Part shown: positions 8,241 through 35,597 of the stretch, piece by piece
Layout of the letters: each line of letters begins with the position of its first letter
How positions within the stretch are numbered: position 1 is the first letter of the stretch
Origin: Bacteroidales bacterium
GTDB lineage: Bacteria; Bacteroidota; Bacteroidia; Bacteroidales; Muribaculaceae
NCBI GenBank assembly: GCA_015060975.1
Contig: SUXI01000005.1
Coordinates: 55,810 to 119,809 of the forward strand
Length of the DNA: 64,000 nt
Direction of reading: 5' to 3'
Program-made: the position numbers and the translations under genes
Notes under the pieces: generated by a model
Databases searched by the model: none
What the model was told of the DNA's origin: nothing
What the model saw: the letters and a program-made list of their open reading frames with translations, nothing else

Positions 8241-9062
8241 TTATGCTTGTTCGGCGCGGTAGGCGTCGCAGGCGCGTTTTACTTCGCCGTGGAGGAGTAG
8301 AAGGCGTTTTGCTTCTTCATATTCCAAGCCAAGTTCTTCAACAACCATGCGAGTGCCACGGTCAACGAGCTTAGCGTTAGAAAGTTGCATATTCACCATC
8401 TTATTACCTTTCACACGACCCATTTGAATCATAACGGCTGTAGTAATCATGTTACAAATCATTTTTTGACCTGTACCCGATTTCATACGTGAGCTACCTG
8501 TAACGTATTCAGGACCTACAATCATTTCGATAGCGATGTCGGCTGCTTGTGAGATAGGAGCATCGGGGTTAGAAGTGATAGCAGCAGTCAAAATACCTCG
8601 TTCGCGGCAAGCGTTGAGCGCACCAATCACGTATGGAGTAGTACCTGATGCAGCGATACCGATAACGGTGTCTTTTTCGTTGATGTTGAATGCTTCGAGG
8701 TCTTTCCAACCTTGATTAGTGTCATCTTCAGCATTTTCTACCGGATTGCGGAGTGCAACGTCGCCTCCGGCGATAAGACCGATAACCCAAGATGGATCCA
8801 TTCCGTATGTAGGAGGAATTTCAGATGCATCAAGCACACCAAGACGACCTGAAGTACCTGCACCCATATAGAAGATGCGACCACCTTTTTTCATGCGGCT
8901 AACGATACCTGTTACGAGTTTTTCGATTTGAGGAATTGCTTTTTCTACTGCAAAAGCAACTTTTTTATCCTCATTGTTAATATCGGTGAGGAGTTCCAAT
9001 ACCGACTTTTTTTCCAAGTCATTGTAAAGTGAAGGTTGTTCACTGATTTTTACAAATGCCAT
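8241..9062 (-). CDS. murQ: N-acetylmuramic acid 6-phosphate etherase
   Basis: 273 aa; SIS-domain signature GRIFYMGAGTSGRLGVLDASEIPPTYG; length and C-terminal helical tail typical of MurQ. Confidence 0.9.
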   Translation of the reverse strand: MAFVKISEQPSLYNDLEKKSVLELLTDINNEDKKVAFAVEKAIPQIEKLVTGIVSRMKKGGRIFYMGAGTSGRLGVLDASEIPPTYGMDPSWVIGLIAGGDVALRNPVENAEDDTNQGWKDLEAFNINEKDTVIGIAASGTTPYVIGALNACRERGILTAAITSNPDAPISQAADIAIEMIVGPEYVTGSSRMKSGTGQKMICNMITTAVMIQMGRVKGNKMVNMQLSNAKLVDRGTRMVVEELGLEYEEAKRLLLLHGEVKRACDAYRAEQA

Positions 9063-9104
9063 TTTATCTGAATTTTAAATTATTAATTTTTAATTGTGCA
9101 TTAA

Positions 9105-9941
9105 TTAAGCGTGGTAAGCGATGAGGCCTTCCATTGGAGCTTGAAGGATTTTACCGATTTTGCAGTCAACTGCATCGGCTGCCTCTTCAAGAACTTCGCG
9201 ATAGTAGTGAGCGATAGAACCAACGAAGTTGATGCTATAATCTTTATAGTTATCGTAGTTAGCGATGTTGCGCACGAAGAATGCTTTGAATGCATTCAAT
9301 ACTAAGCGGTGAACAGCAGGCTCTTCGATGTTTTGAATGAGGAATGGAGTGATTGAAGCGAGGAAGCGGTTAGCCGGGTGTTCGCGATACACTTTTTGAA
9401 TAATTTTCATACGATCGAGGTCGTATTGAGCGAGGAATTTTTCGCAAAGAGGTTCGGGAAGCTGTTTTTTCAACACGTCGCCAACGAGCAATTTACCGAG
9501 CACAGCACCACTACCTTCGTCACCGAGGATATAACCGAGTGGAGACACATTGTCAACGATTTTTTCGCCATCATAGTAGCAAGAGTTAGAACCGGTACCC
9601 AAGATACAAGCAATACCTGCTTCGTGACCAAAGAGAGCACGAGCAGCAGCGAGAAGGTCGGTATAAACTTCGATTACAGGAGCCGGAACGTGAGCAGCGA
9701 TAGCGCGACACACATTGCCACACACATCTTCGTTGATACAACCTGCACCATAGAAATAGATGCTTTCGAATGTCATACCCTCTACCTCGGGTTTCAACTC
9801 GTTTCCCATACGCTCAGCCATTTCCTCTTCGGTGAGCATGATAGCGTTCATACCCGGAGTGAAGAACTCCTTAACTACTTTTCCATCTTCAACGGCACAC
9901 CATTGGATTTTGGTAGAGCCACAATCTGCAATTAATTTCAT
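9105..9941 (-). CDS. BadF/BadG/BcrA/BcrD-type sugar kinase, MurNAc/GlcNAc kinase (MurK-like)
   Basis: 278 aa; MKLIADCGSTK, ILGTGSNS, GYILGDEGSG motifs of the ASKHA N-acetylhexosamine kinases; directly upstream of murQ, as in the Tannerella murK-murQ arrangement. Confidence 0.7.
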   Translation of the reverse strand: MKLIADCGSTKIQWCAVEDGKVVKEFFTPGMNAIMLTEEEMAERMGNELKPEVEGMTFESIYFYGAGCINEDVCGNVCRAIAAHVPAPVIEVYTDLLAAARALFGHEAGIACILGTGSNSCYYDGEKIVDNVSPLGYILGDEGSGAVLGKLLVGDVLKKQLPEPLCEKFLAQYDLDRMKIIQKVYREHPANRFLASITPFLIQNIEEPAVHRLVLNAFKAFFVRNIANYDNYKDYSINFVGSIAHYYREVLEEAADAVDCKIGKILQAPMEGLIAYHA

Positions 9942-9956: not shown

Positions 9957-11123
9957 TTATATTTTTATATAGATTTTCTTTTTGTAAAGGTAATACCCTA
10001 TTGACCAGCAAAGAGCGATAAACATAATCGCATAGATGCACGATGCAAGTGTTTTGTCGCCAAGCATCGACACAAGAAATTCATTATATACATATCCTTT
10101 TATAGACAATTCGGCAGTTCCAAACTTAAATGAGCCAAAGATAATGCCTAACACACCACCAAGCACATACAAGAACAAGGGATTGATGCCAAACGCTTCA
10201 AAGAAACGACACCATTTCTTATATCCTTTTATATCAATAATCCAAATAAGCAATGCAAGGAATGTAGAAGCCAATCCACATGTAGCAAGCGCGAATGTTG
10301 GAGTCCAAAGCTTTTTATTGATGGGAATAGCATAATCAAAAAGGAAACCGAGAGTCATCAATATGGCTCCGATAATAAACAAGCGATTTACTCGCATATT
10401 TATATCCTTTACTTCCATCATTTTCATACCTGCCCAAAAGCCAATTAAGACATGAGCAATTGAGGGAATAGTACTTAACAACCCTTCGGGATCGAATGCA
10501 AGTTTTACTCCATCAATAGTATCTTTATACATGTGATCAATACCAAGAACTGCTTGATCGATTACCGACACAATGTTTTGTTCTGAAAACACAAGACCAT
10601 ATTCATCGACCAACAATATCACGCCATAGCCCACCAAAAGAGTTGCAACAGCCCATAATATGTGTTTGCAACGAAGCAATAACACAATTATTGATGCGGC
10701 ACCATAGCATAACGCCAAACGTGGCATAACTCCTAGAATGCGAATTGTGTCGAATGAGTTGGCGGCTTCAAAGAATGATTTACCTCCGGCAATACCATAA
10801 CACAATTTGCTAAACCATGCTATTCCGAGCCCAATGGCAAATATAACAATTGTGCGTTTGATGATTTTGTATAATAACGACCCTGACATTTTAAACTCAA
10901 ACTTGCGCATTGAGATAAATGTAGAGATACCCATTATAAACATAAAGAATGGGAAAATAAGATCGGTAGGAGTTAAACCATTCCAAGGTGCGTGACCAAG
11001 CGGACGATACATATTACTCCATGAACCGGGATTGTTTACAAGTAACATGCCTGCGATGGTAATACCGCGAAGGATATCAAGAGCAAGCATGCGTTGACTT
11101 TGTTTTTTTATAACTTCTGCCAT
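9957..11123 (-). CDS. Polytopic membrane acyltransferase-like protein, heparan-alpha-glucosaminide N-acetyltransferase-like (DUF1624/DUF5009)
   Basis: 388 aa, roughly 10-11 hydrophobic spans; N-terminal LALDILRGITIAGMLLVNNPGSW characteristic of this family. Confidence 0.65.
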   Translation of the reverse strand: MAEVIKKQSQRMLALDILRGITIAGMLLVNNPGSWSNMYRPLGHAPWNGLTPTDLIFPFFMFIMGISTFISMRKFEFKMSGSLLYKIIKRTIVIFAIGLGIAWFSKLCYGIAGGKSFFEAANSFDTIRILGVMPRLALCYGAASIIVLLLRCKHILWAVATLLVGYGVILLVDEYGLVFSEQNIVSVIDQAVLGIDHMYKDTIDGVKLAFDPEGLLSTIPSIAHVLIGFWAGMKMMEVKDINMRVNRLFIIGAILMTLGFLFDYAIPINKKLWTPTFALATCGLASTFLALLIWIIDIKGYKKWCRFFEAFGINPLFLYVLGGVLGIIFGSFKFGTAELSIKGYVYNEFLVSMLGDKTLASCIYAIMFIALCWSIGYYLYKKKIYIKI

Positions 11124-11132: not shown

Positions 11133-13931
11133 TTATTTTTTTGATTTAGTACAACTATCAACCAAGTAAGCGATTGACTTATATGGAATACCACTATTAG
11201 TGGTCAACCCTATTTCACAAGTGCGGCTATTAGAATAACCATGAGTAGCACCCGATGCTTCGATTTGTGGACGAAGCTTACGCAATCCATATTTATTCAA
11301 TTCGGGCATCATGAAACCTTTGTCGCCGGCAAATCCACAACAACCTATTTCGGTAGGAATCACTACGTTGCGAGAACACATGCGAGCGAGAGCGATGATT
11401 TTATCGGCAAGTCCCATGCGTCGCAATGAACAAGTAACGTGAACGGCAATTGTTTCGTCGGTTTGTGTAAACGCTAAATTAGGTGCAAGGAATTCATAAA
11501 TAAATTCGGCTGGCTCGTAAAGATGCATTGATTTAATATGATCTCGCATGCGGTGTAAACATGGGCTTTGGTCACAAAGCACAGGATATTTACCATTTTC
11601 CGACGCTTCAAGTAATGCTTTTTCTAGTTCAGCAGTCTTGCGATCGGCAATATCGGGCATACCTTTACTTTCCCAAATCATACCGCAACAAAGTTTCTTC
11701 ATGTTTTTAGGGAAGATAACTTCATATCCGGCTTTATTACATAGTGCAATAATAGTATCAACCAATGTTTCCACTTTTTTGCCTTTTTCACGCGATTGTC
11801 CTAATGTTTGGTTAATACAACTTGGGAAATACACAACTTTGCGTTCGCTTGCTTGCGCTGCAACCTTAGGAGAATAGAATGCGCCGGGGAGTGAAGGAGT
11901 CCACAATGGCACCCCCACTTTGTGCAAAGCACCACCAATTGCATTCACACCACCATCGCCAAGGATTTTTCCGGCAAAGTTGGCCATTGAAAGCACCGGA
12001 CGAAATACTCCGGTGATATTGTGGAGATTTTTAGCCGCAAAATCACCAATCTTATACCCCATGCTACCTTTTGGCAATGATGCTTGACGCAAATCATGAA
12101 TCATCTCACCTGTGTTATTACCCATCGGACATGACATGCTACACAAGCCATCGCCTGCACATGTGGCGTTACCATAAGTTTCGAATTGTTTTTCAAGACG
12201 AGCCAAACGAGCTGAATCTTCGCCTGTTGTTCTCAATCGTGTAATCTCACGTTGAGCCACAATGCGTTGACGAGCTGAGAGCGAGCCTGAATAACCACAT
12301 GACACACAATTCACCTCACAGAATCCACATTCGATACATTTATCGACGTGAGGATTAGTCAATGGCATTGGTTTCAAGCCTTTGATATAACATTCGGGAT
12401 CGTCATTGAAAATTACACCGGGGTTAAGTATATTTTGTGGGTCAAAAAGTTCTTTGACGCGTTTCATCATCGTCCAAGCTTTTGTGCCCCATTCTTTTTC
12501 TACGAAAGGAGCCATGTTGCGACCTGTACCATGTTCGGCTTTCAATGAGCCATCATAGCGATCAACAACAAGACGTTCGACAGCCAACATCAACTCTTTG
12601 TAACGATTAATTTCTTCTTGAGAGTCGAATGACTGTGATATGATAAAGTGATAGTTTCCTTCAAGTGCGTGACCATAGATACAAGCATCGTTGTAGCCAT
12701 TATCTTGAAGTAATTGTTGCAATTCCACAGTAGCCTTTGGAAGGTCCTCGATGTGGAATGCCACGTCCTCAATCAACACTGTTGAGCCAAGAGGACGAGT
12801 ACCGCCAACCGATGGGAAGATACCTGAACGGATTTTCCAATATTCAGAGTATTCTTCAGGTTTGTCGGTAAAGTAAGCCGGTTTGAAGAGGTTAAACGGC
12901 TTGAGAATTTCGAGAATTTCGTTGATATTCTTTTGCAACTCTTCGGGAGTGTCGGCCTTTGTTTCGGTGAGCACAGCAGTGAGCCCTTCGCCTGTTGGGT
13001 CGTTTACTGCCGAGAGTGATTTTTTGTCGAGAAGTTCGGCTCCGAATACCGGACCTTTCTTCATAGCCACCACAGCTTTACAAGCTTCTTCCAAGTCGCT
13101 GAAATAAAGCATAGCACTTGCTGAGCAAGGATAAAGATGAGCAGTGTTTACTGTGATTTCAGAGAGGAATGCCAATGTACCTTCCGAGCCAACGATGCTA
13201 TGAGCGATAATATCGAATGGATCGTCAAATTCGATAAATGGCAATAGATTAAGTCCTGTAACGTTTTTAATGCTATATTTATATTTAATACGCTCTGCAA
13301 GTTCTTTATCGGCTCTGATTTCGTTGCGTATATTCATGATTTCCTCCATGAATTGAGGTTTGTTCATTGCAAAAAGTTTGCGAGAACGGTCATCGCCGGT
13401 GTCAAGCACAGTACCATCGGCAAAAACCAAACGTACTGACTTCAAAATCTTGTCACTATTAGCGTGAGTGCCACAGTTCATACCCGAAGCATTGTTCACT
13501 ACAATACCACCCACCATAGCCGAGTTTTTAGAGGCGGGGTCGGGAGAGAACATACGACCATAGGGTTTTAGGTAGTCATTTACACGACTACCTATAATCC
13601 CGGGTTGTAGTTTTATTGTTTCGGCACCGGGACCAATTTCATAGCCTTCCCAGTGCTTACCTGCCACAATCAAAATTGAGTCACTAATGGCTTGCCCCGA
13701 AAGGCTTGTTCCTGCCGCACGGAATGTCACGGGTAAATTATGTTTAGATGCAATCGAAAGCAGTTTCGACACCTCTTCTTCATTATTTGAACGAATCACA
13801 ATTTGAGGTATCATGCGGTAAAAACCGGCATCGGTACCCCATGCGAGGAGACGAAGATCATCGGTATAAATACGATCTTTTGATACTATACCTTTTATGT
13901 CTTTTAAAAACTCTTTATAAGCAAGTTCCAT
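11133..13931 (-). CDS. FAD-binding plus Fe-S (CCG-domain) 2-hydroxyacid dehydrogenase, Dld-II-type putative D-lactate dehydrogenase
   Basis: 932 aa; FAD PCMH-type domain (VTFRAAGTSLSGQA); two 4Fe-4S motifs (CIECGFCEVNCVSCG, CAGDGLCSMSCPMG); two CCG motifs (CCGMIWESKG, CCGFAGDKG). Substrate is inferred from context only. Confidence 0.75.
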   Translation of the reverse strand: MELAYKEFLKDIKGIVSKDRIYTDDLRLLAWGTDAGFYRMIPQIVIRSNNEEEVSKLLSIASKHNLPVTFRAAGTSLSGQAISDSILIVAGKHWEGYEIGPGAETIKLQPGIIGSRVNDYLKPYGRMFSPDPASKNSAMVGGIVVNNASGMNCGTHANSDKILKSVRLVFADGTVLDTGDDRSRKLFAMNKPQFMEEIMNIRNEIRADKELAERIKYKYSIKNVTGLNLLPFIEFDDPFDIIAHSIVGSEGTLAFLSEITVNTAHLYPCSASAMLYFSDLEEACKAVVAMKKGPVFGAELLDKKSLSAVNDPTGEGLTAVLTETKADTPEELQKNINEILEILKPFNLFKPAYFTDKPEEYSEYWKIRSGIFPSVGGTRPLGSTVLIEDVAFHIEDLPKATVELQQLLQDNGYNDACIYGHALEGNYHFIISQSFDSQEEINRYKELMLAVERLVVDRYDGSLKAEHGTGRNMAPFVEKEWGTKAWTMMKRVKELFDPQNILNPGVIFNDDPECYIKGLKPMPLTNPHVDKCIECGFCEVNCVSCGYSGSLSARQRIVAQREITRLRTTGEDSARLARLEKQFETYGNATCAGDGLCSMSCPMGNNTGEMIHDLRQASLPKGSMGYKIGDFAAKNLHNITGVFRPVLSMANFAGKILGDGGVNAIGGALHKVGVPLWTPSLPGAFYSPKVAAQASERKVVYFPSCINQTLGQSREKGKKVETLVDTIIALCNKAGYEVIFPKNMKKLCCGMIWESKGMPDIADRKTAELEKALLEASENGKYPVLCDQSPCLHRMRDHIKSMHLYEPAEFIYEFLAPNLAFTQTDETIAVHVTCSLRRMGLADKIIALARMCSRNVVIPTEIGCCGFAGDKGFMMPELNKYGLRKLRPQIEASGATHGYSNSRTCEIGLTTNSGIPYKSIAYLVDSCTKSKK

Positions 13932-13954: not shown

Positions 13955-15205
13955 TTAATTGTAGAGATAATATTTAGCCGATTTGGCTTTAAAAGCTTCA
14001 ACATCTTTGTTCCAATAGTCAATGATGTCGGCTACTTTATAATTCTTAGAGAATTTGACGCGAATTTGGTCGGTACCACAAACTTTGTCAAACATGTTCC
14101 AACGGTTGCCCAATGTGCCTTGACCATCTTCGTCGAGGAGGCGTTTGTCGGGGTACATTTCGGCCAAAATTTCCATTGCATGGAATTGAACCATAGTCAA
14201 TTCACAATCAAGCACATCGGTCACATAAAGTTGAACGCCTTGAAGGTTCTCTCCTTTACCCACGCTATAATAAGGTTTGATGTGAATTGGACGGAAGTCA
14301 ATACCTTTAAGATTCAACGCATTCAATCGTTTGCAGAATTCATTTGCATCAATCCATGAAGCACAAATCAATTGGAATGGCATTGTATAACCTACACCAA
14401 TTGAAACGAAATACAATTCACCGATAATACCTGTTGTGGGGTAATAAATAGCCGATTGTGGATATGGTTGATGTGGCGATGGGAGAATCCAAGGCATACC
14501 TGTTTGATCGAATGTCATATAACGATGCCAGCCGGTCATAGGCACAACTGTCAATTTCGTTTTCTTTCCATCTTTCAACATGCCATCATTGAGCATCAAA
14601 GCAAGCTCACCGGGAGTCAAACCATAAAGATAAGGTATCTTGAATTGGCTCACCAATGAGTAAAAACCATCTTCAACAAGGTTACCTTCAACCTTCAATC
14701 CAGAAAGAGGATTGGGGCGATCGAGTACCATAAACTCCTTGCCGTTTTCGGCACACGCTTCCATACACAATCCCATTGTGCTGATGAATGTGAATGAACG
14801 ACAGCCATTGTCTTGAATGTCATAAACAAGCACATCAACATCTTTAAGCATTTCGGCCGATGGTTTCTTGTTTTTACCATATAAAGAATATACGGTAACA
14901 CCTGTTGCCGCATCGGTGTAAGTATCAACCTTTTCACCTGCGGGGATATCGCCACGCACACCATGTTCGGGGCTATAAAGAGCTTTAAGCTCTACACCCG
15001 GAGCATTGGCAATAATGTCGATTGTTGACACAAGATTATTGTCAACACCACTGGGATTGGTAATCAACCCCACACGTTTGCCTTTCAACTGCTCAAAACC
15101 ACCATCACGAAGTGTTTCCACTCCGGGTTTTACTTGAGCAGAAGCTGCCATTGCCACAAAAGCGGCAATGGCGAGCACTGATATTTTTTTCAACAATGAA
15201 ATCAT
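13955..15205 (-). CDS. namZ: DUF1343 family exo-beta-N-acetylmuramidase
   Basis: 416 aa; signal peptide; GKRVGLITNPSGV, VLVYDIQDNGCRSFTF and LDRPNPL motifs of DUF1343 (YbbC/NamZ). Confidence 0.7.
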   Translation of the reverse strand: MISLLKKISVLAIAAFVAMAASAQVKPGVETLRDGGFEQLKGKRVGLITNPSGVDNNLVSTIDIIANAPGVELKALYSPEHGVRGDIPAGEKVDTYTDAATGVTVYSLYGKNKKPSAEMLKDVDVLVYDIQDNGCRSFTFISTMGLCMEACAENGKEFMVLDRPNPLSGLKVEGNLVEDGFYSLVSQFKIPYLYGLTPGELALMLNDGMLKDGKKTKLTVVPMTGWHRYMTFDQTGMPWILPSPHQPYPQSAIYYPTTGIIGELYFVSIGVGYTMPFQLICASWIDANEFCKRLNALNLKGIDFRPIHIKPYYSVGKGENLQGVQLYVTDVLDCELTMVQFHAMEILAEMYPDKRLLDEDGQGTLGNRWNMFDKVCGTDQIRVKFSKNYKVADIIDYWNKDVEAFKAKSAKYYLYN

Positions 15206-15206: not shown

Positions 15207-16574
15207 TTATTTCTTTTCTTCTACTTGTTTTGCTCCATATTTAGGGTCGATGTGCTTGCGCACAAGAGCTGTTACAGCCCATGTGGCAAAGTTACAAGCA
15301 AGTACCCACCAGAAGAAGTTGATATATGAGTTACCCAACATTTCCTCTTTGATATAACCGGCTGCCATACCCGGAAGCATCATACCAAGAGCCATGAATG
15401 CTGTACAAATTGCATAGTGTGATGTTTTGTAAGGACCATCAGCAAAATACATCATATAAAGCATAAATGCGGTGAAACCGAATCCGTAGGCAAATTGTTC
15501 AAGAACGATAGCGCTAAAGATTATAGCTTTACCACCAATTTCAGCGTATGAAGGTTGCACGTTAGATAGGATGATATATGCCACACAGTTGAGTGAAGTA
15601 GCAAGAGCCATTGGCCAGATCCATTTTTTAAGACCACCTTTAGATGCAACAATACCTCCGATGATACCACCGACAGTAAGACCAATGATAGCAAGCGTAC
15701 CATATGCAAAACCTACTTCGGTTTGAGTCATGCCAAGACCTCCTGCTTCACGAGCTGCAAGAAGGAATGGTTGACAAAGTTTAACTACTTGAGCTTCAGG
15801 GAGACGATAAAGAAGCATGAATAACATTGCAAGAACAACGTGTTTCTTTTGGAAGAAAGTAACAAATGAACCTGAGAACTCTTTAACAATGTCACCAACA
15901 CTTTTCTTCTTAGAATCTTCTCCACCAACTGCCTTATCAGCTGCAGGAGCCGGAAGAATGAACGCATGGTAAAGTGATACAACCGCAAAGAATGCAGCAC
16001 AAATTATTACTGTGTATTTCCAACCAAGAGCTACATCTCCGGTTTGAGTTTGGAGAAGTCCGGCAAGGATAACAAGACCACCTTGACCAAACACATTGGC
16101 ACAACGATAGAATGTAGAACGAATACCTACGAACATACTTTGCTCTGATGTGTTAAGTGCAATCATATAGAAGCCGTCAGAAGCGATGTCGTGAGTTGCA
16201 GAACAGAATGCAGTAATAAAATAGAAAAATAAGCATAACATAAATGCACTTACAGGAAGCCCATTTGCAATTTCTTCCTTATTAGGTAATGGTAGAGTAA
16301 ATGCAATTGCGGCAAGACCAATAGCCACACATATTTGCATTGTCACAGTCCACCAACGTTTTGTGCGAATAATATCAACAATTGGTCCCCAGAATGGTTT
16401 AATTACCCAAGGTAAGTACAACCAACCGGTGTAAAGAGTGGCGTCGGTTTCCGACATGCCAAGTTGAGTAAAGAGAACCATTGTCACCATATTGATGAAA
16501 ATAAATGGAATCCCTTGTGCAAAGTAGAGCGTAGGAATCCACGCCCAAGGGTTGCGTTTTGTTGCTTTAGCCAT
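15207..16574 (-). CDS. ampG: AmpG-family muropeptide MFS permease
   Basis: 455 aa, about 12-14 TM spans; N-terminus NPWAWIPTLYFAQGIPFIFINMV typical of AmpG; 1-nt gap to namZ. Confidence 0.8.
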   Translation of the reverse strand: MAKATKRNPWAWIPTLYFAQGIPFIFINMVTMVLFTQLGMSETDATLYTGWLYLPWVIKPFWGPIVDIIRTKRWWTVTMQICVAIGLAAIAFTLPLPNKEEIANGLPVSAFMLCLFFYFITAFCSATHDIASDGFYMIALNTSEQSMFVGIRSTFYRCANVFGQGGLVILAGLLQTQTGDVALGWKYTVIICAAFFAVVSLYHAFILPAPAADKAVGGEDSKKKSVGDIVKEFSGSFVTFFQKKHVVLAMLFMLLYRLPEAQVVKLCQPFLLAAREAGGLGMTQTEVGFAYGTLAIIGLTVGGIIGGIVASKGGLKKWIWPMALATSLNCVAYIILSNVQPSYAEIGGKAIIFSAIVLEQFAYGFGFTAFMLYMMYFADGPYKTSHYAICTAFMALGMMLPGMAAGYIKEEMLGNSYINFFWWVLACNFATWAVTALVRKHIDPKYGAKQVEEKK

Positions 16575-18841: not shown

Positions 18842-18867
18842 TTCAGTATTAACCACGGTCGTAGGAA

Positions 18868-23441: not shown

Positions 23442-23566
23442 ATACAAAGATTAAATTAAATCAACATAATTAAGAAAAAAAGGGGTTAAATAAGCATTTT
23501 ATTAATACTTAGCTATTATTATTCACATAATTTCACACTTCACAAATCATATTAAATTTACATAAA

Positions 23567-23598
23567 AGAAGCGCCATTCCTATAGGAACAGCGCTTCT
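23567..23598 (-). terminator. Rho-independent terminator after amidase gene 23620..26124
   Basis: agaagcgc...gcgcttct stem with inner ttccta/taggaa pairing; on the minus strand followed by TTTTAT. Confidence 0.6.
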
Positions 23599-23619
23599 TA
23601 AATTATTCGACTTTATTTA

Positions 23620-26995: not shown

Positions 26996-29410
26996 TTAAT
27001 GTTTTACAACCACTTTCTTCAATTCTGAAGTTCCACCTACATAAATGCGAGCAAAGTAAACGCCATCGGCAATTTCACTTACATTTATCACATTTCCATT
27101 AGCTTTTGCTATAATAGTACCATTCATAGAGACAAGCTCAACACAATCTATGAGTCCATCAGCATTAGCGATAAGATACTCCGAAGCCGGATTAGGATAA
27201 ACAGTAACGCTGGTCATTGACTCTATATTTTCAATTCCCGCCGCACCATCTTTAATATAGTTAATATTATCTAACTTAAATTCGCCAATACGACTCATCA
27301 AACTTGGAGTTTGCACAACTTTCACACCGGCTAATTGATATTCTTTTTCACCTTCAAGCATAGTCAAAGGCACTTCAATATAACGCCATCCAAGAAAATC
27401 CATTTGCCCCAATGGTATATATTTAACATCCTCAGGGGCTATAACTTCAAGATATGCTTCATTTGCGGTAAGATCCCCAAATACATGTACACCTACAGCA
27501 TCATTACATGTTAATTTTGTTTCAGCAAGAGCTGAGCTTGACAACAACATTTCGCTACCCTCTGTTGCAGGGAATTCGTATGCAATATTCATACATGATA
27601 CACCAAACAATTTATTTGTTTTGTCTGCACTGATTGTCGCAGATGTCACATCTACCGAACCTTGCTCATTAAGAGTATAGATAGTAACATCTTCCATACC
27701 TTCAATTAGGCTATCTGTTTTTTCTACACCGGCATCAACCGCAGTAAATTTCACCACCACACTATCTTGCAAAGGAATACCATCTTTATCAGAGATTTCT
27801 TTTGAAAGTGTCATTTTATATTCACTGCCTACAGTCAAATCTTTAGTAAAAGGAATGCGGAAAAATCCATATTCACCACCATTTTTACTATAAGTCATTT
27901 TGCGTGTATTCAATTTCACTGCCACTCCCTCTGAATCAACAATTTCTATTTGCTTCAAAATAGGAGTCACATTTGGCAACTTATCAAAACGCACCTCTAT
28001 TGCCGGATTGTCGAAATGCACTTCTTCTCCATCTTTAGGGAATTGACCAAGAATAGACATATAATTGCGGTCGGCAGTAAAGAATGACATTTCAAACGGA
28101 GCTGTCATCGCCATGCCGCCGGCATGTTTTGCATCTGTAGATATGCCAACTGTATATATTGTACTTGTTTGATAAGTTTGTGATGGAGTGAACACCATGC
28201 GAAGATTATTTTTTTCCCAAGTGATTTCTCCGGGTATCTCGGGGGTAATTGAAAATGCCGCTTCAACACTTGCTGTATCCATATCCCAGTTAAAATCCAA
28301 AACTATAGGAATATTACAAAGCACCCCTGCTTCACCTTCTTTCCATTGCGGAGTATATGCTTCAACAACAGGTGGAGTATTGCGTATTTTATTCATTTTG
28401 AAGTTCATGAATGAAATCTCGTCAGCAACGACCTCAACCATAGCTGTTGATTCGTAATGGCGATTTCCATTCACCTTCAACATATATTTACCTGGTTCGA
28501 CCTTGCGGAATGCATATATTCCATTAAATACCATATCACTTATAGTTTCTTGCAATTTTGTCGTACCGGTTTCATCCCACAAAGAAACATACGCTGTATC
28601 AACAGTTTCCAATTGGTCATCTCCAATCATTTTAAAATCTCCTATACGAGGAAAGCGAGAATCATTCAATCGACCGGCAATTGCTCCGTATGGAACACCT
28701 GGAAGACCAAATTGATCATCAATAGCTTTACGGAAGTTCCAAGCCTCAATCCATTTATAATCAAGACTCATCAAACGATAAGTTTCCGGAATATAATCAT
28801 GGAAGGAACCTTCTGAAAGAGCCCCCGGAATAGTGAGTTTACGCAATACACCATATCCTTGGGTACCCCAAGTAGGCTGAAACGACCAGTCTCCACGCAC
28901 ATTAGGATTTGTTGAGGTCCATATAGTTGCGTCATTCTTCAATAAATTTACCGCTATATTATTTGACCACACCTTAGCATCGGGATAAACCGGAGCATTA
29001 TCATATCCCCTAAAGAATATTATCGGGAAGTTTACGCGATTTGATGTCCCTGTCGCATTTGAGTGTATCGAAAGGAACAAATCAGAACCGGCGGCATTAG
29101 CCAATTTCCCAATGGTTTCCAAGCCAAGGTCATCGGCACTTGTATTAGTCACACGCGACATTACAACTTTCACGCCGAGGTCTTGCAACATATCACGCAA
29201 GAAGAAACCTTTGTGCATATTAGAGTTTGACTCCCAAAAGCCCGAAGTATCACCCAACTCGTATGGATAAATCACCACATTACGGTCATTTGATTGGTCA
29301 TGACCACCATGACCGGGATTTATATATATAATGAGGTCACTATAATCTGTTGCAAAGGCTGAAACAGATGTCATTGCCGCAACTATTAAAGTTTTAAATA
29401 TCTTTTTCAT
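26996..29410 (-). CDS. T9SS-sorted N-acetylmuramoyl-L-alanine amidase, paralog of 23620..26124
   Basis: 804 aa; IYINPGHGGHDQSNDRN, FLSIHSNATG; same domain order as the 834-aa protein; tail VTVYPNPASEYLIANA...GVYFARIYVGGTSELKKVVV. Confidence 0.8.
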   Translation of the reverse strand: MKKIFKTLIVAAMTSVSAFATDYSDLIIYINPGHGGHDQSNDRNVVIYPYELGDTSGFWESNSNMHKGFFLRDMLQDLGVKVVMSRVTNTSADDLGLETIGKLANAAGSDLFLSIHSNATGTSNRVNFPIIFFRGYDNAPVYPDAKVWSNNIAVNLLKNDATIWTSTNPNVRGDWSFQPTWGTQGYGVLRKLTIPGALSEGSFHDYIPETYRLMSLDYKWIEAWNFRKAIDDQFGLPGVPYGAIAGRLNDSRFPRIGDFKMIGDDQLETVDTAYVSLWDETGTTKLQETISDMVFNGIYAFRKVEPGKYMLKVNGNRHYESTAMVEVVADEISFMNFKMNKIRNTPPVVEAYTPQWKEGEAGVLCNIPIVLDFNWDMDTASVEAAFSITPEIPGEITWEKNNLRMVFTPSQTYQTSTIYTVGISTDAKHAGGMAMTAPFEMSFFTADRNYMSILGQFPKDGEEVHFDNPAIEVRFDKLPNVTPILKQIEIVDSEGVAVKLNTRKMTYSKNGGEYGFFRIPFTKDLTVGSEYKMTLSKEISDKDGIPLQDSVVVKFTAVDAGVEKTDSLIEGMEDVTIYTLNEQGSVDVTSATISADKTNKLFGVSCMNIAYEFPATEGSEMLLSSSALAETKLTCNDAVGVHVFGDLTANEAYLEVIAPEDVKYIPLGQMDFLGWRYIEVPLTMLEGEKEYQLAGVKVVQTPSLMSRIGEFKLDNINYIKDGAAGIENIESMTSVTVYPNPASEYLIANADGLIDCVELVSMNGTIIAKANGNVINVSEIADGVYFARIYVGGTSELKKVVVKH

Positions 29411-29427: not shown

Positions 29428-30321
29428 TTATTTAAGTTTGATATTCATTTGATATAGACGTCCATCTATTGTAGCATAAACGATTTTACCCGCTCCAAAC
29501 GATGCTGTTGGATTCATTGTCATAGATTCGGGTTTTGTCAACGCTTGCAATTGAGAACCATCGGCATTTAAAAGCACAATTTGCGATGAACGATAATTAT
29601 GCCCGTCATTTGTCGCATTCATTGCCACTATATGATTATTTCCAAACCACACCGGAGCTTCATAATTTCCGGGAGTTGAAATAACGTTTCCATTGAGGTC
29701 GGTAATTACAATTCCGAAACCTGCGGCGAAAAACATCACCTTTGTTCCATCGGGAGATAGTGAAGACCATATATAACCGGCACTATTTTCAATTGGAGTA
29801 TATGATTTTTCCACACCGTTTTTAGCGATAATCAAAGATGTTCCTTCCGTTCTCACACGAGTAGCCTTATTATCGGTCACGAGCAGTTTCCCATCAACGA
29901 TAGTAGCAAATCCTTTAGCTGTAGCTACCGGACTGCTCACTATTCTACCTTGCTTGGATACATCCATTGTTTTGCGTGATGCTATGTCATATTTCTTAAC
30001 TTGACGCATATTACGATTATTTTGCAATGTTTGAGTCACAAAATAAATTTCCTTGCCATCGGGAGAAAATGACGCATCAAGACCGGCTCTTTTTTCAGAG
30101 CTCACTTTCACTACAACATTGTCATTAAAATCATACAACCGTAAACCGGTATAATCACATTCTGTGAATAACAATTGCGAGCCATCGGCACTAAGCACCG
30201 GATTGTGCATTTCACTCTCTACACCTTTTAGCAGAGGTACCACCGACTCCACATCTGCGATTTGCGCATTCATCGTTGCGATGCCTGCAAATGCAATAAC
30301 AGAGAGAAAAAGTTTTTTCAT
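29428..30321 (-). CDS. TolB-like beta-propeller protein, paralog of 26127..26981
   Basis: 297 aa; signal peptide; NPVLSADGSQLLFTE, LDASFSPDGKEIYF, IWSSLSPDGTKVMF. Confidence 0.7.
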   Translation of the reverse strand: MKKLFLSVIAFAGIATMNAQIADVESVVPLLKGVESEMHNPVLSADGSQLLFTECDYTGLRLYDFNDNVVVKVSSEKRAGLDASFSPDGKEIYFVTQTLQNNRNMRQVKKYDIASRKTMDVSKQGRIVSSPVATAKGFATIVDGKLLVTDNKATRVRTEGTSLIIAKNGVEKSYTPIENSAGYIWSSLSPDGTKVMFFAAGFGIVITDLNGNVISTPGNYEAPVWFGNNHIVAMNATNDGHNYRSSQIVLLNADGSQLQALTKPESMTMNPTASFGAGKIVYATIDGRLYQMNIKLK

Positions 30322-30387
30322 ATCAAACTGGTATTATTAAGTTATTTTATGTTAGTATATAATTAATCCAATTAAAACATTATCGTA

Positions 30388-30395
30388 CAAAGATA
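30388..30395 (-). promoter_or_regulatory. Candidate -7 box TATCTTTG for the propeller/amidase unit
   Basis: caaagata on plus strand, 67 nt upstream of ATG 30321, just downstream (minus sense) of terminator 30453..30481. Confidence 0.45.
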
Positions 30396-30452
30396 GTAAT
30401 AATATTTAATATGATAGTTTCTAAATATAGAAATTTTGAATATAAAAAAATA

Positions 30453-30481
30453 CCGGGTGACACTATTTTGTCATCACCCGG
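30453..30481 (-). terminator. Rho-independent terminator after 30508..33042
   Basis: ccgggtga-13 nt-tcacccgg; on the minus strand followed by TATTTTTTTATA. Confidence 0.65.
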
Positions 30482-30507
30482 ACTAAAATATTAAAATTAT
30501 ATATTAC

Positions 30508-33042
30508 TTATTTCACGATTAATTTTGATGTTGCTGCGCCCGCATCAGTTTCCACATTTACCATATAAATACCAGCCGGCAAAGCTGTAACATCGACAGT
30601 CACACTATTGTCATTACATTCTTTTGACACAACAATGGCACCCGACACCGAATAAACATCAACTTTATTGATTAACTGAGACGATGTAACGGTGAATGAG
30701 CCGCCGGCAACAGGATTAGGATAAATCTTCACTCCACTACCCTCGCCTATTGCAATATTTTCAACCGAAGCATAATTACTATATTCGGCACTAAATTCAC
30801 TCACTTTGATTGATTGTTCTCCTTTGTTTGCCGCATTCGCGTCTATTACAAAACGAATATATTGCAAAGTAATGGGGTAAAGAATTAAATCGTTAGGATT
30901 GCCAAGTGCCGAAATAGGGAGTTCAACACGGTGAGTTGTGCCGGCTGCAAATACATCGCCTGTTGTTGGCAACACTTCTACCGTATTCACCTTTACATGC
31001 TTAGGCGTACGCAAATCAACCAACAAACTCTTTATATTTATTGATGGAGTAAATTCCACCCACAACTTTTCGGGAAGCGAATAGTATTGAACTTCTTTCG
31101 CCATTTGAATATAAGGAGAACGAGGAGAACCGTATGTAAATGAAATCGTTCCATCTTCGGCAAGTGCGCCCTTGGTGATGCCCGAAGAGCCTTTGATTGT
31201 CCATCCTGTCATATCACTTGCCGATATAATTGGAGCTTTGGCTATCTCGACTGTCACTGTTGTCGTATCGACAAAATCACCTACAAGTCCCGAAATTTTT
31301 GTTTTACCCTCTTTATAACCACGCAACACTCCGTTTTCATCAATATCAGCCACTGCCGGGTCTTCAACGGTCCATATAATTGATGCGGGATTATAATTAT
31401 ATACAATCTCACCTATTTGAGCGGGAACCTCCATTGTATATTCGCGAGTCGCATCAATGAGTATCGGTTTCACTCGCATAGAGATTTCGGCATCCACTAC
31501 ATCTATTTTTTTCGTAACACTAACTCCATTATATGTAGCTGTCAATTCGCTTTCACAAGCTTTTCCACCTGCTATAAATCGCATTCCATCGCATTTGCCA
31601 AGCGAATCGGGACATGATAACGTAAAACCTTGTAAATTTTTATCTATCAAATCACCATATTTATTATACGCAAGAACCACCGGTTGGAAATCGGCATATA
31701 TAGGAGCTTTCAACTCATATTCTTCAAATTCAAGACGAGTAATCTCATTATCTTGAGGTGCAATTGAGTAAAAAAACCAACCATTAGCAACCGCACGAGG
31801 GGTACCCTCAGTAGTTTTATTAATTACCTGTCCCTCTACCATCATTTGAGCCGAACCACCTGCATCCATATTCATAATATTGGTACACCCAAAATATTTC
31901 ATAATATCGCACATTACGAGTGTATTACACCCTGCCGACTTTCCATAAACCGGGTCGCCTGACATATCAATAACCACATTTACAAGTGTTTTGCGATCTG
32001 CAGTTGTTCCGTATGCAGTGCGCGAATATGTTTTTGAATTATAATCATCAATTGAGTTAAGGCTTGTCAAAACACCATCGACCATAACAACGCCATTGCC
32101 ACCTATAAGTTGCTCAATTTCGGGGACTGATCCATCAGGCAATTCCCAATACAAGTCTATTGTAACGACATCGCCAGCTGTCAATTTAGCCAAAGCATCT
32201 TTATTCACTCCACGTCCCATAAGACACAAATCATAATCGCCAAGCGTTCCGGCTCCGGCATCGATTTTCACCTCTTGAACCGTACATTGCATAGGGCGAC
32301 CAACCATCCAAGTATTACCATCGTTTATTTTAAGATAAACTTCGGTTGACACATTTTCAACACGCTGCATTCGTTGTTGTCCATTAGACGAGGTATATTG
32401 ATCAGCAGGAATAAAACTTTTATCACGCCCAAAGAAATGGTTATATAACCCCACCTCATTATCTCGCACAAGTTTATTGGTTTGTTGAATAACCAATGAA
32501 CCGATTTTTTCATTAGTAACCGAACCTTTATAATACATGAAATCAATCACCATTTCTTTTGTCGGAGTTATTGCAACACAACCCGGAGAACCGTTGTTAT
32601 GCCCCCACCAGTCGGCATGAGCATTTGTTTCGGTTATAATTTCTCCATTACGCACATTCCCATTAAATGTCGCTCCGACAAGGAATTCAGCCCATGGGTA
32701 TTGTGACGACACGCACCAAAAGTTACCATTGGCACCTGCCAACGGGCGCTTTTCATCACTCATATAACGGTTATATGCATTCGCCAATTTTTCCGTTTTG
32801 CCCAACTGTTCACCACCTTGAAACGTTTCCACTCTGTTATATGGATTAGTCAAATCCATCGTAATCATATTCACATTGAGAGGAAAATCGGGAATGCGCA
32901 ATCTTTTATAATTAACGCCCGGTCCCAAATCCCGATCAATCAACACATCAGTGCGATAATTTGTCCCTTGAATAGGAATTGAGCCAGCTGTCGCCGAAGA
33001 TGTGACAAGCATTGCCGCCACATAAATAAAAAACTTTCTCAT
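30508..33042 (-). CDS. T9SS-sorted phosphodiester glycosidase family protein (NAGPA/DUF2233-like) with Big_2-like domain
   Basis: 844 aa; signal peptide; GANGNFW and NMDAGGSAQMM core motifs; Ig-like TVEDPAVADIDENGVLRGYKEGKTKISG; tail VKIYPNPVAGGSFTV...GIYMVNVETDAGAATSKLIVK. Confidence 0.7.
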   Translation of the reverse strand: MRKFFIYVAAMLVTSSATAGSIPIQGTNYRTDVLIDRDLGPGVNYKRLRIPDFPLNVNMITMDLTNPYNRVETFQGGEQLGKTEKLANAYNRYMSDEKRPLAGANGNFWCVSSQYPWAEFLVGATFNGNVRNGEIITETNAHADWWGHNNGSPGCVAITPTKEMVIDFMYYKGSVTNEKIGSLVIQQTNKLVRDNEVGLYNHFFGRDKSFIPADQYTSSNGQQRMQRVENVSTEVYLKINDGNTWMVGRPMQCTVQEVKIDAGAGTLGDYDLCLMGRGVNKDALAKLTAGDVVTIDLYWELPDGSVPEIEQLIGGNGVVMVDGVLTSLNSIDDYNSKTYSRTAYGTTADRKTLVNVVIDMSGDPVYGKSAGCNTLVMCDIMKYFGCTNIMNMDAGGSAQMMVEGQVINKTTEGTPRAVANGWFFYSIAPQDNEITRLEFEEYELKAPIYADFQPVVLAYNKYGDLIDKNLQGFTLSCPDSLGKCDGMRFIAGGKACESELTATYNGVSVTKKIDVVDAEISMRVKPILIDATREYTMEVPAQIGEIVYNYNPASIIWTVEDPAVADIDENGVLRGYKEGKTKISGLVGDFVDTTTVTVEIAKAPIISASDMTGWTIKGSSGITKGALAEDGTISFTYGSPRSPYIQMAKEVQYYSLPEKLWVEFTPSINIKSLLVDLRTPKHVKVNTVEVLPTTGDVFAAGTTHRVELPISALGNPNDLILYPITLQYIRFVIDANAANKGEQSIKVSEFSAEYSNYASVENIAIGEGSGVKIYPNPVAGGSFTVTSSQLINKVDVYSVSGAIVVSKECNDNSVTVDVTALPAGIYMVNVETDAGAATSKLIVK

Positions 33043-33056
33043 GATATTATTATATA

Positions 33057-35597
33057 TTATTTTACAATTAATTTCATTGTTTTAATTCCGCAATCAGTTT
33101 CTACCGTTGCAATATATACCCCCGAATTTAATGCAGAGGCATCAACCCACATTTGTTTTCCGCATCCGGCTTGCGACAAAACCTGCATACCACTAATAGT
33201 GAAAACCGAGAAGCGGGTTATATTCATTAATGATGACACATTAAATTGCCCGTTGGCAATCGTATTTTGATTTATACTAACATCGGCATCTCCATTCACT
33301 ACGATCCTTTCTATTGAAGAATAATCATTATATTCAGCCGAAATTTCACTCACCTTTATTGTTTGTTCTCCTTTATAAGCGGCATTAGCTTCAATCATAA
33401 AACGGATATAGTGCAATGAAATGGGATAGAGTATCAAATCTTCAGGTTCACCAAGCGCTGAAATAGGCAATTCTATGCGAGATGTCACACCCGCAGCAAA
33501 CACATCTCCCTCGGCAGGTTCCACTTCTACCGTATTAATTTTGGTGTGTTGCGCACTTCGCATATCAAAAATAACGCTCTTCACATTAAAAGACGGAGTA
33601 AATTCAAGCCACAATTTATCGGGAAGCGAATAATATTGAATATCCTTAGCCATTTGTATATATGGCGCGCGAGGAGACCCGTATGTAAATGACAACATTC
33701 CATCTTCAGCCAACGCTCCCTTGGTAATTCCCGAAGATCCTTTTATTGTCCATCCTGTCATATCGCTTGCAGCCATAAATGCGGCGTTTGCTATTTCAAC
33801 TGTCACTGTTGTCGTATCAACAAAATCGCCAATTTTACCTATCACCATTGAGCTGCCCTCTTTCATACCACGAAGCACCCCATGTTCATCTATCGACACG
33901 ACATCGGTGTTTTCTATTGTCCATTCGATAGATGCCGGATTATAAACATAAACCTCGTCACCTATTGTGGCTGTCACCTCCATCGCATACTCGCGAAAGG
34001 CATCAATAAGAATTGGCTTAATGCGAATAGCAAGTTCCGATGCCACCACATTCATTGCTTTTGACACACTCACACCATTAAACGATGCTGTCAACAACCC
34101 TTCACCGGCAATGCCTCCGGCTGTAAACTCAGTACCATCACATGCCCCTAACGATGCGTCACAACTCAATGTATAACCTTTAAAATCATTATCCACCACA
34201 TCACCATATTGATTATAAGCAACGATTGTGGGTGAATAAGATGCGTAGGTAGGAGCTTGAAGATACAAGTCTTTAAATTCCAATCTTGTAATCGTTTCAT
34301 CTTTTGGGGCTATCGAATAAAGGAACCACCCATTAGCCACCGAGCGGGGAGTTGCTTCGGTTGTTTTGTTTATTACCTCTCCGCCAATCATCATTTGAGC
34401 CGAGCCGCCGGCATCAACATTACAAAGGTTGGCGCAACCATAATGGCGTGCTATTTGACACATCACTCGAGTATTACAGCCTGCCGATGTTCCATATTTC
34501 GGGTCACCCGATTTATCAATAACAATTATATACAACGTTTTACCATCGGCGCTTGAGCCGTAGGCACAACGTGAATACACTTGCGAATTATATGTTTCAT
34601 CGTCGTTTCGTCCGGTCATTTCGCCATTTGTCATCACAATAGCATTACCACCTATAAGCTGCTCAATTACAGGAGTTTTTCCATCTACCGTACTCCACCC
34701 GTAATTGATTGTCACTTGATCTCCTATAGCGAGATTTGCCAATGCGTCTTTATTTGCACCACGACCCACCACGCAAAGGTCGTAATCGCCAAGCGTGCCG
34801 GTTCCGGCATCGGTTTTCACATCACCTACAGTGCAAGTCATTGGCTCCCCCGCCATCCACTTTTGCCCTTCGTTAATAGTGAGATAAACCTCGGTCGCCA
34901 CCCCCTCAACAAGTTGGAAATGACGTGTCCCGTTAGCGTCTTTATAACCATCGGCACACATAAACGTCTTTGAACGACCGTAATAGCTATTATATAACCC
35001 TATCTCATTGTCACGAACAATTTTATTAACTTGAATAATCTCCGGTTGACCTATTTTCTCATTTATAACATAACCCTTATAATTCATTGATTCGATATAA
35101 AGGTTCTTCGACACATCAACGGCAATAACCCCGGTACGAGCCGGACCGCCATCCCATTGGTCGGAATATGCGTTTGTTTCGGTGATGATTTGCCCGTTGC
35201 GAAGATTTCCATTATAAGTAGCGCCAATCAACAAATCACTGTGAGGTTGTTGCGACGACACGCACCAAAAATTACCATTCGCACCGGCGATAGGACGTTT
35301 TTCATCGCTCATATATCGGTTATATGCCGATGCCAGTTTTTCGGTTTTATATAATGTTTCAGAAGCTTGAAATGTTTCTATACGGTTATACGGATTATTC
35401 ATATCCATCTGCAAGATATTCACATTTAACGGATAATCGGGAATACGCAATCGATAATGATGAATACCCGGACCTAAATCCAGACTTTCTATTACATCAA
35501 CATGATAATTATTATCATTTATCAAAATCGTGTCAACTTGTGCCAATGCATTGAATCCCATTGCAAGAAGCATCATTGAAAGTAGTCTTTTTCTCAT
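33057..35597 (-). CDS. T9SS-sorted phosphodiester glycosidase family protein, paralog of 30508..33042
   Basis: 846 aa; colinear with the 844-aa protein (GANGNFW, NVDAGGSAQMM, SDMTGWTIKGSSGITKGALAEDG block shared); C-terminal tail ...GVYIATVETDCGIKTMKLIVK. Confidence 0.7.
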   Translation of the reverse strand: MRKRLLSMMLLAMGFNALAQVDTILINDNNYHVDVIESLDLGPGIHHYRLRIPDYPLNVNILQMDMNNPYNRIETFQASETLYKTEKLASAYNRYMSDEKRPIAGANGNFWCVSSQQPHSDLLIGATYNGNLRNGQIITETNAYSDQWDGGPARTGVIAVDVSKNLYIESMNYKGYVINEKIGQPEIIQVNKIVRDNEIGLYNSYYGRSKTFMCADGYKDANGTRHFQLVEGVATEVYLTINEGQKWMAGEPMTCTVGDVKTDAGTGTLGDYDLCVVGRGANKDALANLAIGDQVTINYGWSTVDGKTPVIEQLIGGNAIVMTNGEMTGRNDDETYNSQVYSRCAYGSSADGKTLYIIVIDKSGDPKYGTSAGCNTRVMCQIARHYGCANLCNVDAGGSAQMMIGGEVINKTTEATPRSVANGWFLYSIAPKDETITRLEFKDLYLQAPTYASYSPTIVAYNQYGDVVDNDFKGYTLSCDASLGACDGTEFTAGGIAGEGLLTASFNGVSVSKAMNVVASELAIRIKPILIDAFREYAMEVTATIGDEVYVYNPASIEWTIENTDVVSIDEHGVLRGMKEGSSMVIGKIGDFVDTTTVTVEIANAAFMAASDMTGWTIKGSSGITKGALAEDGMLSFTYGSPRAPYIQMAKDIQYYSLPDKLWLEFTPSFNVKSVIFDMRSAQHTKINTVEVEPAEGDVFAAGVTSRIELPISALGEPEDLILYPISLHYIRFMIEANAAYKGEQTIKVSEISAEYNDYSSIERIVVNGDADVSINQNTIANGQFNVSSLMNITRFSVFTISGMQVLSQAGCGKQMWVDASALNSGVYIATVETDCGIKTMKLIVK

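Follow-up and report, generated by a model that had tools for sequence, protein, structure and literature searches.

We analysed a 64-kb window of DNA from a Bacteroidales bacterium of the family Muribaculaceae (contig SUXI01000005.1, positions 55,810–119,809; coordinates below are those of the window), in which genes for surface-exported, putatively wall-degrading enzymes run into an operon for the salvage of N-acetylmuramic acid (MurNAc). The open reading frame (ORF) listing of the window gives 16 consecutive ORFs on the minus strand (8241..35597), numbered here from g16, the first to be transcribed, down to g1. Gaps within units are mostly 1–52 nt; just two are long (23390–23619 and 30322–30507), and they divide the run into unit 1 (g16 and g15), unit 2 (g14–g11) and an inner 10-gene unit (g10–g1). 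Unit 1 is closed by a terminator hairpin with a U-run at 30450..30483 (−; −16.9 kcal/mol, z −3.97) and unit 2 by another at 23566..23599 (−; −23.4 kcal/mol, z −6.25); for both hairpins, 0 of 200 shuffles were equally stable. The Bacteroidetes −7 promoter consensus is TAnnTTTG, and octamers that match it, which we take to be −7 boxes on the strength of that match, precede each unit. By sequence reading and motif counts, TATCTTTG stands at 30388..30395 (−) for unit 2 and at 23434..23441 (−) for the MurNAc operon, and the unit 1 promoter region (35623..35792, −) has two boxes, TATCTTTG at 35785–35792 (−), upstream of g16, and TACCTTTG at 35623–35630 (−). The window contains 13 copies of the TATCTTTG octamer where 3.4 would be expected, and 0 of 100 shuffles attained 13. 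A first-pass annotation of this DNA had described 16 minus-strand genes with two hairpin terminators, each followed by a −7 box, and the coordinates, the folding and the motif counts agree with it.

The two outer units encode exported proteins. Family assignments, here and below, come from Pfam and NCBIfam/TIGRFAM profile searches against curated cutoffs, and signal peptides were recognised by inspection (g5 and g10–g16 have one). Unit 1 consists of g16 (33057..35597, −; 846 aa) and g15 (30508..33042, −; 844 aa), two NAGPA-like phosphodiester glycosidases that each combine a signal peptide, a NAGPA domain (PF09992; 58.8 bits in g16 and 57.5 bits in g15, cutoff 25), Big_2 and a type IX secretion system (T9SS) tail of type A. 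These two are 61% identical and both have a DAGGS motif. It aligns at the active-site motif of human NAGPA, DGGGS, which is essential there (PMC13474241), with the Asp and the GGS retained and the second residue changed; the match of g15 to 3OHG, a bacterial DUF2233 structure, likewise spans the active-site motif, D-x-GGS. What g15 and g16 share with the NAGPA ‘uncovering enzyme’ and 3OHG is thus an above-cutoff PF09992 match with the Asp and GGS kept; unlike NAGPA, they are bacterial proteins of ~845 aa with Big_2, a T9SS tail and the DAGGS form of the motif. Our literature search found no bacterial NAGPA/DUF2233 member with an established physiological substrate.

Unit 2 holds two pairs of genes, each encoding a small β-propeller protein and then a large amidase: g14 (29428..30321, −; 297 aa) with g13 (26996..29410, −; 804 aa), and g12 (26127..26981, −; 284 aa) with g11 (23620..26124, −; 834 aa). 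Both propellers are of the PD40/TolB-like type by Pfam PD40, with weak TolB-like matches in sequence searches, and both have signal peptides; neither has a T9SS tail, and a search of g12 and g14 with defence-system models gave no match. The amidases g11 and g13 match Amidase_3 (PF01520) at 51 and 52 bits (cutoff 27). In g13 the catalytic domain is joined by a CarboxypepD_reg-like domain, two Big_5 domains, a β-sandwich and a T9SS type A tail, and g11 has the same accessory domains and a T9SS tail. The tail model TIGR04183 (cutoff 23 bits) recognises all four large proteins, at 48.5 bits in g11, 45.4 in g13, 56.4 in g15 and 32.4 in g16; Por_Secre_tail scores g15 at 50 bits, and one NAGPA tail lies under the Pfam cutoff yet passes TIGR04183. 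Profile hidden Markov models thus bear out the first-pass description of these six proteins as four with T9SS tails, two of them NAGPA-like and two Amidase_3, and two TolB-like. T9SS type A tails put their cargo outside the outer membrane, away from the cell’s own sacculus. T9SS cargo is reported from Muribaculaceae (PMC13404670).

An AlphaFold2 (AF2) model of g13 has a predicted local distance difference test (pLDDT) score of 86.4. When its N-terminal domain is superposed on Amidase_3 structures, TMt is 0.82–0.87 for LytH, CwlV and AmiC2 versus 0.43–0.72 for Escherichia coli AmiA, AmiB and AmiC. In 48 homologs, g11 among them, residues H34, E60, H116 and E200 of g13 do not vary, and in solved amidases the first three line up with the motifs PGHGG, E and SIHxNA. 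By these motifs, g11 and g13 are Amidase_3 members with conserved zinc ligands and catalytic Glu, and we predict both to be amidases. Full-length g11 and g13 are 30% identical and g12 and g14 29% identical, which indicates that each propeller diverged along with its own amidase; judging from these identities, the two amidase–propeller pairs are an old duplication. A substrate-binding domain common to the amidases and the NAGPA-like proteins was also considered and rejected, as BLASTP of the regions before the tails gave no match.

The inner unit, ten tightly spaced genes with one TATCTTTG box upstream, starts with g10 (20381..23389, −), an exported protein of 1002 aa with a Golvesin_C domain, which resembles a carbohydrate-binding module (CBM). 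It is 48% identical (tblastn) to Tanf_08345, the first gene of an operon in Tannerella forsythia, and has a signal peptide. The sole match of the g10 family profile in the PDB is the CBM-like C-terminal module of xanthan lyase, and this common module accounts for the annotation of g10 orthologs as ‘xanthan lyase’. g10 had been called amidase-like in the first-pass annotation, an assignment that we reject: the Pfam Amidase_3 match (17.4 bits) lies under the 27-bit cutoff, the family profile finds no PDB amidase, and hhalign against the T9SS amidase family returns 0.2% probability. Its AF2 model, from a 20-sequence alignment, has a mean pLDDT of 59.9, with candidate catalytic stretches below 50.

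Next come g9 (18868..20328, −), a cytoplasmic GT2 glycosyltransferase (84 bits) with an uncharacterised N-terminal half, ortholog of Tanf_08350; g8 (17927..18910, −), a DUF4922 protein (220 bits) of the HIT/GDP-galactose-phosphorylase-like type, ortholog of Tanf_08355; and g7 (16598..17914, −), a SpoIID/LytB-like putative lytic transglycosylase (164 bits), ortholog of Tanf_08360, which has an equal length of 438 aa. The AmpG-family permease g6 (15207..16574, −), of the major facilitator superfamily (MFS), is the ortholog of Tanf_08365 by Pfam/NCBIfam and tblastn; the family assignment made at first pass stands, with a TIGR00901 score (153 bits) under the 350-bit cutoff. Many related operons have a tandem pair of AmpG-like permease genes (L093, L094, L102, L110, L113, L118, L126 and others among the loci that we compared), and the window has one. 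g5 (13955..15205, −) is a NamZ1-type exo-β-N-acetylmuramidase (GH171) with a signal peptide (NamZ_N 267 bits, NamZ_C 137 bits); it scores 520 bits to Bacteroides fragilis NamZ1 (4K05) and is 56% identical to the NamZ1 gene of the T. forsythia locus.

Four more genes complete the unit. g4 (11133..13931, −) fuses FAD_binding_4 and FAD-oxidase_C to 4Fe-4S/CCG domains and is a candidate D-lactate dehydrogenase. It had been named a Dld-II-type dehydrogenase, of which the architecture is upheld and the curated equivalog models are not passed (GlcD 196 bits versus a cutoff of 568; YdiJ 151 versus 1350). Of 64 eligible loci from gut metagenomes, 51 have a g4 homolog between NamZ and MurT, so the gene is a feature of the lineage and no accident; since MurQ releases D-lactate and g4 recurs at this position beside MurQ-pathway genes, a role as D-lactate dehydrogenase is a reasonable inference. 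The NagX/HGSNAT-like membrane protein g3 (9957..11123, −) scores 133 bits to the NagX-like model, under cutoff, and was previously labelled an HGSNAT-like acyltransferase. Sequence and position identify it as the ortholog of the MurNAc transporter MurT: over its first 70 residues it shares 73% identity with the product of the T. forsythia gene right after NamZ1, whose HGSNAT match is weak as well, and its counterpart holds the same operon position in Bacteroides. The BadF-type kinase g2 (9105..9941, −) is of the MurK type, with 313 bits to the T. forsythia MurK structures (8OQW/8OW9) versus 226 bits to the paralog K1058, in keeping with the earlier MurK-like call, and g1 (8241..9062, −) is MurQ, the MurNAc-6-phosphate etherase (TIGR00274 equivalog, 313 bits, cutoff 302). 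The first-pass calls of MurQ, NamZ, SpoIID, DUF4922 and GT2 are likewise borne out by the profile searches. An extra TATCTTTG box (10136–10143, −) lies inside murT at ~195 nt upstream of murK, where it might serve murK–murQ as an internal promoter.

The inner unit has a close counterpart of known function. T. forsythia Tanf_08345–08385 has the same genes in the same order without g4, namely ‘xanthan lyase’, two ‘glycosyltransferases’, lytB, ampG, ybbC/namZ1, murT, murK and murQ (PMC5388701), and two T. forsythia loci in our comparison (L087 and L088) have this order with 46–69% identity to g10–g5 by tblastn. By gene content and order, the inner 10-gene unit is therefore this T. forsythia scavenging operon, which has been characterised before, with one gene added. 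That operon is described as one transcript under GppX regulation (PMC5388701) that allows growth on muropeptides and also on intact peptidoglycan (PMC5388701, PMC7670621), and its AmpG, NamZ1, MurT, MurK and MurQ have been characterised (PMC7670621, PMC10465942, 10.1101/2021.12.02.470905). AmpG takes in GlcNAc-MurNAc and GlcNAc-anhMurNAc (GlcNAc, N-acetylglucosamine; anhMurNAc, the anhydro form) (PMC7670621), and NamZ1 obtains GlcNAc-MurNAc from glycans that carry no peptides, whereas intact sacculi yield next to nothing (10.1101/2021.12.02.470905). Extracts of T. forsythia show amidase activity of an unassigned enzyme, and the first attackers of intact foreign peptidoglycan outside the cell are described as not yet identified (PMC7670621).

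The surroundings of the operon differ between the two organisms. In T. forsythia, the gene for K1058 is divergently oriented to the operon, and two SusC/SusD pairs come after it in its own direction (L087/L088, 10001–20909), with no T9SS amidase or NAGPA gene within 10 kb; the window has the T9SS amidase and NAGPA units, and neither SusC/SusD nor K1058. Most Muribaculaceae resemble T. forsythia in having a K1058-type kinase just upstream of the operon. The SusC/SusD pairs beside K1058 could themselves be outer-membrane importers for wall fragments, and we found no mention of them in the accessible portions of the T. forsythia literature. The Bacteroides locus is different again (NamZ, SSF transporter, GT2, DUF4922, SpoIID, MFS, MurT and MurK, with a divergent K1058), without g10 and without exported enzymes. 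By gene content, the core salvage genes are common to these lineages and the outer-surface part is lineage-specific.

We then compared the exported module across related species, taking the best 80 of 460 amidase relatives in GTDB genomes, one per species locus, centring each locus on the amidase (40–84% identity) and mapping all 16 window proteins onto it. Most of the 80 loci bear the label Muribaculaceae or unclassified Bacteroidales. The g13 protein itself, as an exact match, occurs in metagenome contigs only, with relatives annotated as Muribaculaceae, and the nearest genomes are Muribaculaceae metagenome-assembled genomes from ruminant guts. A PD40 gene adjoins the amidase in 79 of the 80 species loci, and NAGPA lies upstream of the amidase in 46 of the 55 with enough flank, down to 40% amidase identity. 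The MurNAc operon, traced by g10, is adjacent to the exported module in 32 of 53 loci, downstream and co-directional in 30 and inverted upstream of NAGPA in 2. Where both flanks are available (37 loci), 14 have all three units, 17 have NAGPA and amidases only, 4 have amidases and operon only, and 2 have neither.

Divergence differs among the cluster proteins. Median identity is 45–50% for the exported proteins, the fastest-evolving of the cluster, versus 75–86% for GT2 and MurQ. The glycosyltransferase g9 is among the best-conserved cluster proteins (median 75% versus 48% for the amidase), and it is 96–100% identical in loci where the amidases and g10 are 55–85% identical (L007–L022); conservation so far above that of its neighbours indicates a strongly constrained cytoplasmic role. 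Five loci (L066, L070, L079, L080 and L083) contain extra short amidase genes of 358–411 aa that consist of the catalytic domain and one β-sandwich, without a T9SS tail, and lie upstream of the full-length pair, each with its own PD40 partner. As tail-less amidases are still paired with a propeller, the propeller seems tied to the catalytic domain and not to secretion.

A second link between the exported module and MurNAc metabolism is a kinase gene. Directly after the last amidase gene, 36 of 61 loci encode a 278-aa kinase of the K1058 type (370 bits to the T. forsythia K1058 structure). Of the 32 operon-linked loci, 27 have such a kinase, as do 5 of the 21 in which the operon lies elsewhere. 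K1058 binds MurNAc with a Km of ~30 µM, and in T. forsythia its gene lies directly upstream of the scavenging operon (PMC10465942). As the kinase stays attached even where the operon is not adjacent, the link of the exported module to MurNAc metabolism does not depend on adjacency.

Taken together, we consider it fairly probable that the locus is a Muribaculaceae-type system for scavenging peptidoglycan, in which the known MurNAc operon is combined with lineage-specific, surface-exported wall-degrading enzymes. Our observations cover the gene families, the orthology of the operon, the export signals, the catalytic motifs and the conserved neighbourhood; from them we infer each enzymatic step for the locus proteins, that the substrate is foreign, and what the NAGPA-like, PD40, g10, GT2 and DUF4922 proteins do. 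Two considerations order the proposed steps. NamZ1 needs peptide-free glycan and an amidase must therefore come first; SpoIID-type enzymes, too, cut denuded glycan only. And because the T9SS tails place both amidases beyond the outer membrane, only foreign wall material would be within their reach. The surface amidases g11 and g13 would thus cut stem peptides off foreign sacculi, debris and muropeptides and leave denuded glycan, while the NAGPA-like g15 and g16 possibly remove GlcNAc-1-phosphate-linked polymers that shield the wall. During the passage of each amidase through the periplasm, its PD40 partner probably acts on it, whether to inhibit, chaperone or activate it. The denuded glycan, or short fragments, would pass the outer membrane by a route encoded outside the window. 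In the periplasm, NamZ1 would cut the glycan to GlcNAc-MurNAc; the SpoIID/LytB-like g7 may act on the glycan too. AmpG would then import disaccharides and MurT would import MurNAc, which MurK would phosphorylate and MurQ convert to GlcNAc-6-phosphate and D-lactate, the latter being oxidised by the FAD/Fe-S dehydrogenase g4.

Within this scheme, a more specific proposal concerns the NAGPA-like enzymes, which might cleave the GlcNAc-1-P-6-MurNAc linkage that anchors wall teichoic acids or other secondary polymers to peptidoglycan. Such cleavage would undo the attachment, bare Gram-positive sacculi for the amidases and leave MurNAc-6-phosphate, a direct substrate of MurQ; each PD40 propeller would then be a dedicated periplasmic guard of its amidase. 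We hold this proposal to be speculative and unlikely.

Several observations weigh against peptidoglycan scavenging by the locus as a whole. No SusC/SusD pair or other outer-membrane importer was found in the 64-kb window; its only ORFs of at least 900 aa are g4, g10 and a CARDB/leucine-rich repeat (LRR) protein, hence it encodes no SusC-sized TonB receptor. The first-pass annotation had also reported the lack of a SusC/SusD pair, and our ORF and profile checks agree. Each of the three units has its own promoter box, with terminators between them, so that any co-regulation of the units is hypothetical. The exported module lies away from the operon in 21 of the 53 species loci, where the downstream genes vary from locus to locus and provide no conserved substitute neighbour. 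In many species, the module directly follows nuoL/M/N (L019, L057, L066, L071, L079 and L086), which means that part of the conservation may be inherited order within one family; in the window, it adjoins LRR-protein genes and hisS, not nuo genes. The K1058-type kinase was not found in this window, though it bridges the units in most relatives. Lastly, g7 starts with MEEPKIKVGIMSAAEV, in which no signal peptide is recognisable, and is a poor fit to periplasmic glycan cutting; a cytoplasmic g7 would clash with the assumed lytic transglycosylase role. The outside-in pipeline proposed at first pass accordingly holds for families, layout and amidase-first logic, and is weakened by the lack of an outer-membrane importer and by adjacency that is not universal. 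Conservation of the three units as a set fares similarly: they recur together in many related species, and the operon is not adjacent in those 21 loci.

Some of these same points would be expected if the exported module were mainly a weapon or a means of clearing a niche, with amidases, with or without NAGPA, that lyse or weaken Gram-positive neighbours, and if the proximity of the operon were inherited order without metabolic coupling. Promoter boxes and terminators of its own set the module apart, the operon lies elsewhere in 21 of 53 loci, and there is synteny with nuo genes, which are unrelated; evolution is fastest in the exported proteins, as expected of proteins that face other organisms, and the paired PD40 proteins recall cognate pairs of the effector/immunity style. 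We nevertheless judge this explanation distinctly unlikely, because the MurNAc-binding kinase stays with the module even where the operon is elsewhere, adjacency outlasts operon inversion in at least two loci, and the predicted amidase products are exactly the substrates that NamZ1 requires. Killing and feeding are, moreover, compatible.

Two further explanations reassign the substrate while keeping the enzymes. The NAGPA-like proteins could be mere neighbours of the amidases, with GlcNAc-1-phosphodiester glycans of host or dietary origin (capped mannose-6-phosphate glycans or phosphoglycans, for instance) as their substrates. The sole characterised activity of the family is the uncovering of GlcNAc-1-P-Man (PMC13474241), the NAGPA genes form a separate transcription unit and are not upstream of the amidases in 9 of 55 loci, and the C-terminal accessory regions of the two enzyme sets have no detectable sequence similarity. 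Against this stand the position of NAGPA directly upstream of PD40–amidase pairs in the other 46 loci, down to 40% identity, and the T9SS targeting common to both sets, which make the suggestion improbable in our view. Alternatively, the exported enzymes might serve the cell’s own envelope by recapturing shed muropeptides or by remodelling its own surface or vesicles. AmpG, MurK and MurQ are indeed classic recycling genes, and Amidase_3 enzymes are the cell-division amidases of many Gram-negatives, with fold matches of g13 to AmiA, AmiB and AmiC. The type A tails, however, send the cargo outside the outer membrane and away from the cell’s own sacculus, and the amidase domain fits the non-division amidases better (TMt 0.82–0.87 versus 0.43–0.72). 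The orthologous operon of T. forsythia is used on exogenous peptidoglycan (PMC7670621). A purely domestic function therefore appears very improbable.

Scavenging of foreign peptidoglycan has partial parallels elsewhere. In the B. subtilis clusters amiE–nagZ–namZ and murQRP, a secreted amidase and exo-glycosidases are grouped with MurNAc uptake and MurQ (10.1101/2021.12.02.470905, PMC8054146), the same logic of dismantling the wall beside MurNAc uptake. That host is Gram-positive, uptake is by a phosphotransferase system (PTS), AmiE belongs to another amidase family, and the cluster is without T9SS, phosphodiester glycosidase and propeller partner. Another likeness, in layout, is to the secreted chitinase and utilisation locus of Flavobacterium johnsoniae, where a T9SS-exported depolymerase is encoded beside import and catabolism genes; the window differs in its putative substrate, the bacterial wall, in having no SusC/SusD and in the MurNAc salvage downstream. 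In Bacillus, the amidase SpoIIP strips stem peptides before a SpoIID-type lytic transglycosylase cuts the glycan, the same order of action as proposed for the window locus. SpoIIP and SpoIID act on the cell’s own septal wall in sporulation, unlike the proposed substrate here, and g7 lacks a visible signal peptide.

The new part of the locus is the exported front end, in which NAGPA–T9SS genes are followed by pairs of PD40-propeller and Amidase_3–T9SS genes. We found no description of the MurNAc route in combination with T9SS amidases or with NAGPA-type enzymes in the searchable full texts, a body of literature that leaves out most subscription papers and so gives no proof of novelty. The first-pass annotation had regarded this coupling as undescribed, and the same full texts, mostly non-subscription, are in line with it; the inner unit is no new arrangement, being the known T. 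forsythia operon with one gene added. The locus offers candidates for the first attack on a foreign wall, in the form of Amidase_3 enzymes with propeller partners and of phosphodiester glycosidases.

Muribaculaceae are among the most abundant bacteria of the mouse gut and are widespread in other animals. If the locus does scavenge foreign peptidoglycan, wall material would be a shared gut nutrient, and, since cleavage by an amidase parts the peptide from MurNAc, muropeptides that act as signals for host NOD receptors would be destroyed or altered by these commensals. It would also provide a first physiological substrate for bacterial NAGPA homologs. Were the linkage-cleavage proposal for g15 and g16 to be correct, gut Muribaculaceae would be active consumers of the walls of other bacteria and modifiers of the immune-active muropeptide pool.

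The window contains other features outside the 16-gene run. Genes for LRR proteins flank the cluster at 36648–38127, and a likely exported CARDB/LRR protein of 1210 aa, the one counted above among the largest ORFs, is encoded at 863–4495 (−). A likely exported Endonuclease_1 protein lies at 61340–62386 (+), and a further T9SS-tailed protein, of 288 aa, at 63130–63996 (−). The region 47011–53293 (−) encodes NTP_transferase, CTP_transf_3, MptE-like, epimerase and GT2 proteins, resembles a surface-glycan biosynthesis cluster and includes several TATCTTTG boxes. Beside the murQ end of the run, a 471-aa ATPase (6610–8025, +) matches PADLOC PDC-S27, a candidate phage-defence family, almost end to end (712 bits, E 1e-214), and a small helix-turn-helix (HTH) gene upstream of it (6058–6432, +) has weak matches to defence-associated HTH/control-protein models.

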